This document shows, one piece after another, positions 32,193-35,120 of a stretch of 35,994 nt of DNA. The translations under genes and the position numbers were made by a program. The stretch is from Deltaproteobacteria bacterium (lineage in GTDB: Bacteria; Myxococcota; JACRCW01). The notes under the pieces are model-generated. The model saw nothing but the letters and a program-made list of their open reading frames with translations, did not search any database and was not told where the DNA came from. The stretch is from assembly GCA_016218805.1 (NCBI GenBank), contig JACRCW010000062.1, forward strand, positions 1 to 35,994, written 5' to 3'. How positions within the stretch are numbered: the stretch's first letter is position 1; the number at the start of each line of letters is the position of its first letter.

Positions 32193-35120
32193 ATGAGGAC
32201 TTCGCGCAGGCGTTGGAGCCAGATCGTCGCACTGGTTGTGCCGGTGGCGTTGGCGGCGTGCGGACAGCAGGGACCCGAAGGGCCGGAAGGGCCGCAGGGA
32301 CCCGCCGGAGCCTCGGGAGCCAGCGGCCCCACGGGTCCGCGCGGGCCCGCAGGCCCCGCCGGCGCCACGGGTGACACGGGTGACACCGGCGCCACGGGGG
32401 ACATCGGCCCTGCCGGCCCCACGGGGGACACCGGCCCTGCCGGCCCCACGGGCGACACCGGCCCCGCCGGCCCCACGGGCGACACCGGACCCGCCGGCCC
32501 CACCGGCGACACCGGACCCGCCGGCCCCACCGGCGACACCGGACCCGCCGGCCCCACCGGCGACACCGGACCCGCCGGCCCCACCGGCGACACCGGCCCT
32601 GCCGGCCCCACCGGCGACACCGGCCCCACGGGCGCTACGGGCGCCACCGGCGCTACGGGTGACACCGGCCCCGCCGGCCCCACCGGAGACACTGGCCCCG
32701 CAGGCCAGCCTCCCATCTCCACCACGGAGTCCTGCGCGGGCTGTCACAACGCCAGCCTGCCGGACGTGCACATGTTGCCGGAGCGTGACGCGGTGGGCGT
32801 CAAGCTCCAGCACTGGAGCGCCAGTGGCGCGCCCACACTGGTGGGCGGCGTGCAACTGCCCGCGGTGAGCGTGGACCCGGTGACCTTTGCCGTGACGGTC
32901 CGGTTCAACGTGCGGGTGAATGGCGTGCCCCGCTATGACTTCCTTGCCAAGGCCCAGGATTCGCTGGCCCACAACGAAGACGCCTGGTGGGTGTACATGA
33001 CGGACCCAGCCACCGACTGCGCCGGCACCACGCAGGCGGCTCCCAACAACACCGGCCCCGGCGGCTGCCGCACCAAGATCACCTCTGCCAACTGGAGCTT
33101 TGTGCACAGCGGCAACGGCAATTACACGGCGACGGTGACCGGGTTCACCGCAGCCGCGGCGGACGGCACCGTGTTCATGCTCAGCATCATGAACCCGCAC
33201 GGCGTCACCGCCACCGCGGTGGCCACATACGGCACCCCCGCGCGCGATCTGGTGGGGGACGCGGCGTGCATCAACTGCCACGGCAACCACGTCTGGCGCG
33301 GTGCCGCGCATGACGTGACCAATCCGCAGGGCACCGGCGCGTGCGTGGTGTGCCACAACCGCAAAGGCTCCGCGGACCCCCGCCTGCCCGGCGCGGGTTC
33401 CGGCCTGATGGGCCTGATTCACGGCATTCACAACTCCCACGGCATGCCGGACGGGCAGTACACGTTCACTTGGACCAACGGGAACCAGTTCAACTTCTCC
33501 GTCGGGTTCCCCGGCTACATGAACAATTGCGCCGCCTGTCATGACACCCAGGCGCGGTTGGACGCGGTCAAGGACACCCCGGTGTCCTACGCCGTCTGTA
33601 TCTCCTGTCACGACAGCTGGGACGCGTTCCCCCGCACGCGCGTGGGCGGGGCTTATGACCTGCACCGGGCGTTCACCAACCTGACGGGCACGGACTGCTC
33701 CGGCTGCCACAACGGCACCATGGCTCCCGCCACACTGGCCGGCTTCCATAACGGCGAAAAGACCCCGCGCTCCGGCCTCATCTGGGACGGCGCGGACCAG
33801 TCCGTTGTCCTGGGCGCGGCCATTGACATGCAGATCACCGGGGTCACCGTGAGCGGCACCAACCTGGTGGTCACCTGGACCGCCATGCAGGGCACCACCG
33901 CGGTGAACCCGTGCAACACGGACATCACCGCCGGGCCGGTCTTCATTGGCGCCACGGCCAACACCGCCACCGGCATGGCCAACAGCAACATGTCCATCCT
34001 CAAGGGCGTGGCGCAGGGTGATGACTGGGTGAACGCGGGCCAGACGGGCACCGTCTCCCCCGGCCAACCGGTCAACGTGTCGCTCACCACCACCAACACC
34101 GTGTGCGCGTCCAACGTGGCAACCAGCACCATCGCGCGGGACACGTATCCTGCCGCCGCCGCCACCAAGGGCATTGTGGCCATCCAGGGCAAGCCGCAGG
34201 TGCGGTTCAACCCCACCATCGGGACCAACCAGGAGGTCATCCAGGTGCGCGCCAAGACGCCGGTCCGCGAGTTCCTGCTCGCCGACGGCGCCGCCCCCGC
34301 GGCGACGGACCTGCGCCGCGCCATCGTGGACACGGGCAAGTGCCTCGCGTGCCATGAGGGCTCGCTGTACCAGCACGGCGGCAACCGCGTGGACAACGTG
34401 GACCTGTGCGTGATGTGCCACAACCCGGCCGCCAACGAAGGCAACAACCGCTTCAACATGGGCGTGGATGTCACCGAGGCGTACGACGGCAAGCCCGGCG
34501 AGGCCTACGACATGCGCAACATGGTGCACGGCATCCACTCGGCCGGCGAGTCAGGCCGCCCGATTGTCTATTACCGCTCCAACGGCATCTATTTCTTTGG
34601 CCCCCGGGCCGCGCTGGCGGCGGTCACCAACTGGCCCACCTCCGGCGGCATCACCTGCAAGAACGCCGAAGGCGCCGACGTGACCTACTACAAGGTGGCC
34701 GGCTCCGTTCCCAACGGCACCAGCGACCGCGTGCCTTCCGTCAACACGGACGGCACGTGCAACACGGGCACCAGCAACCCGCTCAGCACCGACGGCGTGT
34801 GGCGCATCCACAACTTCATTGAGGTGCATTACCCGCAACCGCTGAACAACTGCGGCGCCTGCCACACCAACGGCTGGACGCCGGCGGCGGTGGACGGGAC
34901 CAAGGGCGTGGCGCTCACCGTGGACCCGGGTGCGGCGCCGTGGGGCAACCAACTGGATGACGTGCTCATGGGCCCCACGGCCGCCTCCTGCATGAGCTGC
35001 CACCAGTCGGGTGACGCCTATGAGCAGTACGTCCTGCGCCAGCACGCCGCGGACCAGGGCTTTGCACCCACGATGTTCACCGACGGACGCCAGACGCTGC
35101 TTGACGCAGCGGCGTACTGA
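32193..35120 (+). CDS. MtrC/OmcA-family 10-heme c-type cytochrome lipoprotein with collagen-like N-terminal stalk
   Basis: GGAGG RBS; lipobox LAAC; 49 Gly-X-Y triplets; 10 CxxCH motifs; IHGIH and MVHGIH ligand motifs; RRAIVD..KC..CH, HGGNR and [11 protein letters not shown] as in MtrC/OmcA heme domains. Confidence 0.9.
32406..32621 (+). repeat. 27-bp tandem repeat x8 encoding GPAGPTGDT
   Basis: Unit GGNCCYGCCGGCCCCACSGGSGACACC repeated eight times with only synonymous differences. Confidence 0.95.

Follow-up and report, generated by a model that had tools for sequence, protein, structure and literature searches.

The gene at 32193..35120 (+ strand) of a 35,994-nucleotide (nt) stretch of DNA from a groundwater deltaproteobacterium (contig JACRCW010000062.1; the whole stretch is hereafter called the window) encodes a predicted lipoprotein in which an uninterrupted collagen-like stalk of 50 Gly-X-Y triplets lies between the lipobox Cys and a ten-heme cytochrome head related to MtrC and OmcA of Shewanella. 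We propose, with a probability of about 0.5, that this stalk winds with those of two more chains into a collagen rod up to ~43 nm long, which would hold three heads at its tip.

The open reading frame (ORF) starts with ATG and encodes 975 residues (aa). Its N-terminus consists of a charged n-region, a 12-residue hydrophobic core and the lipobox L-A-A-C, read from the sequence (signal peptide aa 1-22 and Cys23, 32193..32261), and Cys23 is invariant across 60 aligned homologues. The stalk (aa 24-173, 32262..32711) begins with Gly24, directly after the lipid Cys23. A preliminary description of this DNA had recognized the lipobox Cys correctly, but its count of 49 triplets from 32271 missed the first one. 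The X position is occupied by P (28), D (13), A (7) and Q (2), and the Y position by T (28), A (13), Q, E and S (2 each) and R, I and P (1 each), such that GPA (13), GDT (12), GPT (11) and GAT (5) are the prevalent triplets, with nine others. Gly is found at neither X nor Y, and the tract is devoid of Cys and His, in agreement with the earlier statement that the stalk carries no heme. Charged residues make up 10.7% of the stalk, with a net charge of -14 and regularly spaced Asp. Pfam Collagen PF01391 matches it at 76.3 bits against a cut-off of 27.2, and a phmmer search of the PDB aligns it with collagen chains and with the Gly-Pro-Thr region of BclA (1wck, E 3.4e-9). Fifty glycines in register exclude a chance origin.

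The head contains ten CxxCH motifs, at aa 181, 359, 384, 446, 469, 502, 717, 739, 887 and 933, and no CxnCH variants. The comparison with OmcA/MtrC profiles that the preliminary description had proposed gives 132.6 bits for Pfam PF22113 (MtrC/MtrF domains II/IV), well over the cut-off of 30, and 204.1 bits for NCBIfam TIGR03507 (OmcA/MtrC family), narrowly below the cut-off of 209.3. Because a phmmer search of the PDB with the whole protein was swamped by collagens and missed the head, a head-only profile was used, which finds MtrF at E 2.6e-22. Additionally, an AlphaFold2 (AF2) monomer model built on the 60 homologues is confident for aa 180-975, with predicted local distance difference test (pLDDT) values mostly above 85 in the head. 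Foldseek with this model retrieves MtrC (6qyc) at E 1.6e-17 and UndA, OmcA and MtrF at E 1e-17 to 1e-13, all with probability 1.0. VIA alignment yields Z scores of 17.7 for MtrF (506 residues, root-mean-square deviation 6.0), 15.3-15.8 for MtrC, 15.4 for OmcA and 14.6 for UndA, with aligned lengths of 506-553 residues across the Shewanella heads, whereas the next unrelated fold scores 6.7. Taken together, the profile and model comparisons indicate that the head is a member of the Shewanella outer-surface cytochrome fold, larger at ~800 aa.

Following the stalk, the chain is predicted to form an N-terminal heme module (32712..32792; CxxCH aa 181-185, nt 32733-32747; pLDDT 78-91 for aa 181-200), a β-barrel domain I (aa ~201-346, 32793..33230; AF2 strands, aligned to MtrF/MtrC from model residue ~196-204), a pentaheme domain II (aa 351-509, 33243..33719; CxxCH 359, 384, 446, 469 and 502, the best PF22113 stretch), a β-barrel domain III (aa ~520-700, 33751..34292; AF2 strands) and a domain IV in which CxxCH occurs only four times (aa 717, 739, 887 and 933, 34314..35117), all on the + strand. 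MtrC domains I-II (9eov) also align to model residues 540-961, because of an internal duplication.

The ten motifs of the preliminary description are thus all present, yet they are arranged as 1+5+4 rather than as the plain 5+5 expected of a decaheme head, in which the last motif lies near the C-terminus. Here the protein ends 39 residues after CxxCH 933-937, with no C-terminal tenth module. The same arrangement, an N-terminal motif and no C-terminal one, is found in 53 of the 60 aligned homologues, and the reverse, a tenth motif on a C-terminal extension, in the other seven. The alignment of the head profile with MtrF spans the equivalents of aa 887 and 933 and ends at chain residue 601 of 669, not covering MtrF's last motif. 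The stalk-adjacent module of a paralogue in the same genome (C40, see below) matches best to the final ~20-30 residues in 14 of 16 homologues of the C-terminal type (E down to 2e-7 in a small test set of 13.7 thousand residues). The N-terminal module of the Pelotalea homologue aligns weakly with the last heme module of UndA (E 0.058), and the window protein's own N-terminal module gives a short match only (E 0.03-0.15). We infer from these alignments that the terminal heme module has moved from the C-terminus to the N-terminus in this sub-group, where it now begins seven residues past the last triplet. Its position next to the stalk is new here.

The stalk is not a peculiarity of one gene. We scanned the whole 6.43-Mb assembly (170 contigs, 92.4% complete) in stop-to-stop frames. 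Among 33 frames with at least four CxxCH motifs, seven have 33-50 triplets directly after a lipobox, and two further frames with fewer hemes are also stalked, giving nine stalked cytochrome genes with this gene included. The stalks of the other eight comprise 33-41 triplets. Specifically, MtrC-like heads are carried by this gene and by those on contigs C48, C154, C90, C40 and C62 (of which the C40 and C62 genes are truncated where their contigs end), an octaheme PF13447 head by C110, a c7-like triheme head by C42 and a dihaem class I cytochrome by C101. Two non-heme lipoproteins are stalked as well, with 29 triplets on C26 and 38 on C14. The nine cytochrome stalks align over at least 18 invariant Gly columns and share a GPTGPR-containing block with a single Gly-Pro-Arg triplet; this stalk is homologous to those of the other eight cytochrome lipoproteins.

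The paralogues differ markedly in how far their 5' parts and their heads have diverged. In this gene and three paralogues, the ribosome-binding site and signal peptide are near-identical, and the ~20 nt 5' of the ATG hardly vary. The 5' parts of four paralogues, comprising ribosome-binding site, signal peptide and stalk, share 74-82% DNA identity, whereas their heads share only 24-29% protein identity. Similar 5' parts on divergent heads point to exchange or gene conversion of a 5' cassette between the paralogues.

Two pairs of these genes show further features. In C154:32452-35616 (L010) and C42:35293-36396 (L015), a Cys-containing WDLNGNG...D...NGD motif stands right after the stalk in place of the heme module; by analogy with the cystine knots that end some animal collagens, this motif could bind calcium or form a disulfide knot and thereby lock a trimer. 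C40:70004-71608 (L013) and C62:1-1596 (L014) are 82% identical in their 5' halves, share the heme module that follows the stalk and both run into a contig end; they are either an unresolved duplicate pair or an assembly split.

A survey of tract length in homologues, which the preliminary description had called for, places this stalk at the upper end of the range. A total of 308 head homologues was found. The best 120 of these were surveyed, and the 88 with a recognizable lipobox form the full-length set. Counting in-register triplets whose run begins no more than six residues from the Cys, 67 of the 88 have at least four, 33 at least ten and two at least 20, namely 34 triplets in P0007 and the window's 50; the median is 8. 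The tract reaches within 4-11 residues of the first heme motif in 43/88. Of 76 loci from named genomes, 58 have a lipobox, and 55 of these 58 have at least four triplets. Long tracts among them are found in an Anaeromyxobacter assembly (46 triplets, L043) and in another assembly (27, L032). Tracts as long as that of the window are therefore rare rather than routine, with 46 and 34 triplets in two other assemblies, so that the ground on which the preliminary description would have given up its reading, routine long tracts in homologues, does not apply. In the first 170 residues of the L043 homologue, the 46 triplets follow a Cys-Lys start and are built of a GETGPVGPTGPQ-like unit. The long tracts of L043, P0007 and L032 consist of different repeat units, which suggests independent expansions in which the register has always been kept.

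Carriers of such tracts span several phyla and belong to Anaeromyxobacteraceae, Myxococcaceae/Archangium, Desulfuromonadales, Steroidobacteraceae, Woeseiaceae and other Gammaproteobacteria, and the homologues with a named source are mostly from Anaeromyxobacteraceae. Cultured carriers include Anaeromyxobacter sp. PSR-1 with 11 triplets (read by eye) and Pelotalea chapellei with five. Additionally, other stalked head families were surveyed with PF01391 in the genomes of 40 relatives. G001, which alone among the 40 is from the same family as this genome, encodes 28 triplets with eight hemes and 22 with ten, and further stalked cytochrome lipoproteins of Myxococcota have 18 triplets with ten hemes and 20 with two (both G032), 21 with eight (G026) and 16 with ten (G023).

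The extra length of the window's stalk probably stems from a tandem repeat. An array of 13.5 copies (32352-32706) includes a perfect block of 119 nt (32478..32596, + strand) made of four identical 27-nt units encoding GDTGPAGPT. The seven GDTGPAGPT units listed differ at four positions, all of them synonymous third-codon positions. The excess over the paralogues (33-41 triplets) is ~12 triplets, or about four 27-nt units, and is best explained by a recent tandem expansion of this unit. The same repeat makes the count of 50 provisional. In contigs of four public runs every base is covered, yet none bridges 32508-32605, and paralogue contigs align partly in the stalk. As no contig spans the 119-nt perfect core, the exact number of triplets depends on the assembler's path; 39 triplets sit in contigs that continue into unique flanks.

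It is accordingly possible, though doubtful, that the stalk is an assembly artefact, with 50 triplets instead of ~37, or with a wrong 5' part joined to this head through a repeat shared among paralogues. The perfect block and the unbridged interval fit such an error, as do the loose contig ends at 32621-32635, which run into other sequences, one of them reading like the post-stalk junction of paralogue C154. Moreover, paralogue stalks are 70-80% identical in DNA, and on C40 and C62 the contig breaks off inside such a gene or shortly behind it. Against this, synonymous differences in the units on either side of the perfect block anchor it at both ends, and the block is shorter than the usual 150-nt read. 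The closest head homologues in other assemblies likewise have a lipobox and a tract of 13-34 triplets, and a 46-triplet version exists, so both the architecture and the long tracts are independent of this assembly. The succession of lipobox, stalk and head is safe, apart from the exact count.

We consider it probable, from the sequence pattern, that the stalk forms a collagen triple helix, because the Gly periodicity is strict and the composition is rich in Pro and Thr as in BclA. The periodicity extends to the non-repetitive parts of the stalk (its first ~12 and last ~10 triplets), to all 11 stalks of the genome and to the independent expansions elsewhere. On this ground the trimer with a 30-heme head and the reach of ~40 nm put forward in the preliminary description are plausible. 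A collagen triple helix rises 0.286 nm per residue. At this rise, and if helical, the 150 residues of the stalk would measure 42.9 nm and the 33-41 triplets of the paralogues 28-35 nm. The stalk has no redox centre or cofactor site, and electrons would not travel along it. Instead, the lipid anchor would act as a free pivot on which the rigid or semi-rigid rod tilts, which would let the head or heads contact a donor cytochrome on or close to the membrane and also acceptors (mineral, humics or neighbouring heads) as far off as the stalk is long. If three chains assemble, their heme modules beside the stalk would come together at the tip and could couple the three heads electrically.

Several observations weigh against such a rod. 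The AF2 monomer model gives the stalk a pLDDT below 35, which is uninformative on a helix, and neither Pfam nor NCBIfam recognizes a trimerization domain. Shewanella relatives have five triplets, and the first ~45 residues lie outside the structural alignments; these OmcA/UndA-type relatives are monomeric in solution, which implies that short tracts need not form helices. Furthermore, slippage in multiples of 9 nt could have contributed part of the Gly periodicity, and the thermal stability of the stalk is uncertain, given its low share of charged residues and no known hydroxylation.

These points would be compatible with a monomeric, flexible and protease-resistant tether, on which a single ten-heme head diffuses as on a ~150-residue leash, similar to tethered carriers with long linkers or to the disordered N-terminal linkers common in outer-membrane lipoproteins. 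Most homologue tracts, at 4-15 triplets, are short for a stable unhydroxylated helix, and slippage in units of 9n nt keeps the register without selection. Disordered linkers occur in about half of the outer-membrane lipoproteins of E. coli, according to a preprint (10.1101/2021.01.05.425367). However, a disordered leash needs neither a Gly at every third residue nor the absence of Gly elsewhere. The non-repetitive ends are also in register, the register is kept in all stalks of the genome and in the independently expanded ones elsewhere, and the composition matches a region of BclA known to be triple-helical. We therefore regard a leash as unlikely and retain the collagen rod as the preferred reading.

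With respect to electron supply, the preliminary description was right that no porin-cytochrome partner adjoins the gene: no MtrA/MtrB-type gene and no porin were found in the window. The genome search for partners gave no match to PF11854 (MtrB/PioB) in the 92.4%-complete genome, and for TIGR03508 (DmsE/MtrA family) only sub-threshold matches in the genome, the best at 73.8 bits against 192.2. At 17 relatives' loci, no MtrA/MtrB-like gene was seen among 35 neighbour ORFs (the nearest of 138 ORFs listed), and seven of the 35 are a second MtrC-like paralogue in tandem. The cytochromes of this clade therefore appear to be generally unlinked to a conduit. According to Shi et al. 2014 (PMC4245776), the pcc clusters of Anaeromyxobacter comprise a porin and a periplasmic 12-heme cytochrome with no outer-membrane cytochrome, which leaves room for unlinked surface cytochromes, and a protein like this one could fill that gap. 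The same source describes Fe(III) respiration in Anaeromyxobacteraceae, the main source of the named homologues, so electron export is not unexpected in this lineage.

Elsewhere in the genome, C146:65683-69127 (L020) includes a 706-aa protein with seven CxxCH motifs and a cytochrome-b (Ni_hydr_CYTB) membrane domain, adjoining a 12-heme cytochrome of 317 aa and a sigma-54 two-component pair. From its domain content, the 706-aa protein is a candidate quinol-oxidizing entry point for electron export. No porin was identified beside the 12-heme cytochrome of C146.

An outer-membrane, surface location is suggested by the location of the head family in Shewanella, by the residue at +2 and by a secretin encoded in the genome, GspD (497 bits, cut-off 351). 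In the mature N-terminus, C-G-Q-Q-G-P-E, position +2 is Gly and not the Lys that serves as inner-membrane retention signal in M. xanthus, as stated in PMC3222651, and +7 is not Ala. Two further findings speak against the proposed surface arrangement: the same stalk stands under two heads typical of periplasmic proteins, a dihaem class I cytochrome and an octaheme head of enzyme type, and the 46-triplet protein of L043 has the +2 Lys that is an inner-membrane signal in M. xanthus. These findings would fit a periplasmic strut, in which a rod of 28-43 nm spans the periplasm from one membrane and brings the head near the opposite membrane or spaces redox partners. The c7-like triheme head is another normally periplasmic one, Lys at +2 occurs in 8/88 homologues, and lengths cluster per genome (33-41 here, 22-28 in G001, 18-20 in G032) as though fitted to an envelope dimension. 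On the other hand, the studied members of the head family are cell-surface proteins, as the titles of their structures state, and this protein has Gly at +2. A 43-nm rod exceeds the usual periplasm of ~20-30 nm, and three ~85 kDa heads in a trimer would take up much room beside the cell wall. The secretin, moreover, is of the type II secretion kind. A strut is, on balance, rather improbable.

Still less credible is a role as adhesin or matrix anchor of the Scl, Lcl or BclA type, in which the stalk would stick the cytochrome to mineral or exopolymer and not set a distance. The NCBIfam models of SclB, SclA and Lcl do match (NF038329, NF038330 and NF046116), and the regularly spaced Asp and negative net charge could bind metal-oxide surfaces. 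Yet the scores of 97.6, 86 and 77.3 bits are far below the cut-offs of 325, 400 and 500 and reflect the Gly-X-Y repeat only, the tract lies between anchor and head and is not distal, and the same stalk stands under heads of unrelated function. We consider this role very improbable.

A bolder extension of the collagen rod can be envisaged as a long shot. An exchangeable 5' cassette would stand under at least nine cytochromes of four unrelated types, whose different heads could co-trimerize on homologous stalks and would form a redox canopy ~28-43 nm outside the outer membrane, at a height particular to the genome, with the relocated tenth hemes making a three-heme hub at the tip of each rod. 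Four frames with 30-33 CxxCH motifs occur elsewhere in the genome, and the height of the canopy may match such 30-33-heme cytochromes acting as vertical wires.

A Shine-Dalgarno-like GGAGGA (32184..32189, + strand, read from the sequence) lies 3 nt 5' of the ATG, in the block that is near-identical across three paralogous cytochrome genes. Downstream, the next gene, an AAA ATPase, starts 301 nt past the cytochrome gene, and the nearest upstream coding remnant is 728 nt away on the opposite strand. A single-gene transcription unit is plausible from this spacing, and the monocistronic arrangement claimed earlier is probably correct. As for the terminator claimed earlier, a terminator-like hairpin with a T-rich tail does stand 40 nt past the stop (35160..35200, + strand; hairpin 35160-35190 with 13 pairs, 11 of them G-C), but one such site against 2.6 in shuffles is by number no significant finding. 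The search for a sigma-70-like promoter in 31400-35994 gave none, and there were no inverted repeats in 31400-32270 and no Rfam family in the window. Two antisense ORFs over the gene (32003-32725 and 32049-34538, both - strand) were rejected as high-GC shadows, the + frame having 308 homologues.

Words of the ATTGC/GCAAT type recur in all four paralogous cytochrome genes some 90-130 nt 5' of the ATG. The window has ATTGCATTGCAGGCAATTGCG there (32060-32130), which holds a short palindrome, and alignment places the words at the same position upstream of the C154, C40 and C62 genes. A conserved CGGAGCGCAC-like word is also found. The shared words may represent the site of a common regulator.

Other parts of the window bear on different subjects. 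The remnant of an RND (resistance-nodulation-division) efflux operon occupies 30545-31464 (- strand), where the N-terminal part of a membrane-fusion-protein-like sequence passes directly into the C-terminal ~160 residues of an AcrB-type pump, which correspond to Pfam positions 858-1021 of 1021 and are divided between two frames. The locus has the appearance of a pseudogene produced by deletion plus frameshift. A 786-aa ORF at 27924-30284 (- strand) has no Pfam match, and in its middle, by eye, a His...Cys pair (..GYDGHSDLG.. / ..FTGLCAGK..) is reminiscent of a putative caspase-like (clan CD) peptidase. Four consecutive + strand ORFs of 417, 625, 294 and 535 aa, likewise with no Pfam match, fill 10893-16998, the most G+C-rich part of the window (72-75% versus 60-68% elsewhere). 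At 18502-23882, a gene row comprising an ABC (ATP-binding cassette) ATPase, an ABC-2 permease fused to ABC_transp_aux (GldG-like) and a DUF4340 protein has the arrangement of the gliding-associated ABC transporters, which probably prompted the mention of gliding in the preliminary description.

In models of extracellular electron transfer, terminal multiheme cytochromes sit directly on a porin-cytochrome conduit, and long range is assigned to heme filaments, pili or soluble shuttles. If our reading is true, a collagen rod between anchor and head would be a different solution, namely a mechanical spacer or swinging arm with no conductivity of its own. Stalked cytochromes occur in dozens of uncultured and a few cultured metal- or metalloid-respiring bacteria, from Myxococcota to Desulfuromonadales and Gammaproteobacteria. 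The length of the stalk in triplets, 4 to 50 in nature, is a testable variable and a cheap sequence marker for the class, and the stalk-adjacent tenth heme provides a second structural prediction. A literature search returned no account of a multiheme cytochrome with a collagen-like tract (the search did not extend to subscription-only papers and supplements). What is new here, besides the relocated heme module, is the survey of tract length across the family, the connection with the N-termini of the Shewanella proteins, the independent expansions, the discordance between 5' cassette and head, and the repeat-based explanation of, and caveat for, the count of 50.

The nearest known systems are the Shewanella surface cytochromes MtrC (4LM8, 6QYC), OmcA (4LMH), MtrF (3PMQ) and UndA (3UCP), which likewise have a lipoprotein signal and ten CxxCH motifs and share the four-domain fold of barrel, pentaheme domain, barrel and heme domain (VIA Z 14.6-17.7). 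The preliminary description had contrasted the stalk with the short linkers of MtrC and OmcA. These linkers are indeed short, but in the solved OmcA and UndA chains the linker consists of five Gly-X-Y triplets, located where the window protein has its 50. This correspondence suggests that the textbook Shewanella linker may be a vestigial or minimal form of the same element. Unlike the Shewanella proteins, whose heads measure 600-700 aa and bind 5+5 hemes, the window protein has a head of ~800 aa with a 1+5+4 layout in which the tenth module is N-terminal beside the stalk, no mtrAB genes lie alongside, and the genome has no MtrB family match. The Pcc conduits of Anaeromyxobacter and Geobacter (PMC4245776) are likely to represent the same physiological setting, with no pcc genes in the window.

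Among collagen-like proteins, streptococcal Scl1/Scl2 and Legionella Lcl are likewise surface proteins with a rod between head and anchor. They have C-terminal LPXTG or other anchors and adhesin heads, in contrast to the N-terminal lipobox and cytochrome head found here. BclA, which forms the nap of the Bacillus exosporium (1WCK), resembles the window's stalk more closely in having an unhydroxylated, Gly-Pro-Thr-rich Gly-X-Y tract derived from tandem DNA repeats. The number of repeats in BclA sets the length of the filament and varies between strains. Its filaments are described as trimers. The N-terminal domain of BclA is attached to a spore protein, the C-terminus forms a C1q-like trimerization domain, and there is no redox centre, whereas the window protein combines a lipid anchor with a heme head and has no evident trimerization domain.

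Among electron carriers, Rhodobacter cytochrome c-y is membrane-tethered on a long linker and serves several partners by restricted diffusion. Cytochromes of that type are monoheme class I proteins with a non-periodic linker and a transmembrane-helix anchor, whereas the protein described here joins a ten-heme head through a strict Gly-X-Y stalk to lipid.

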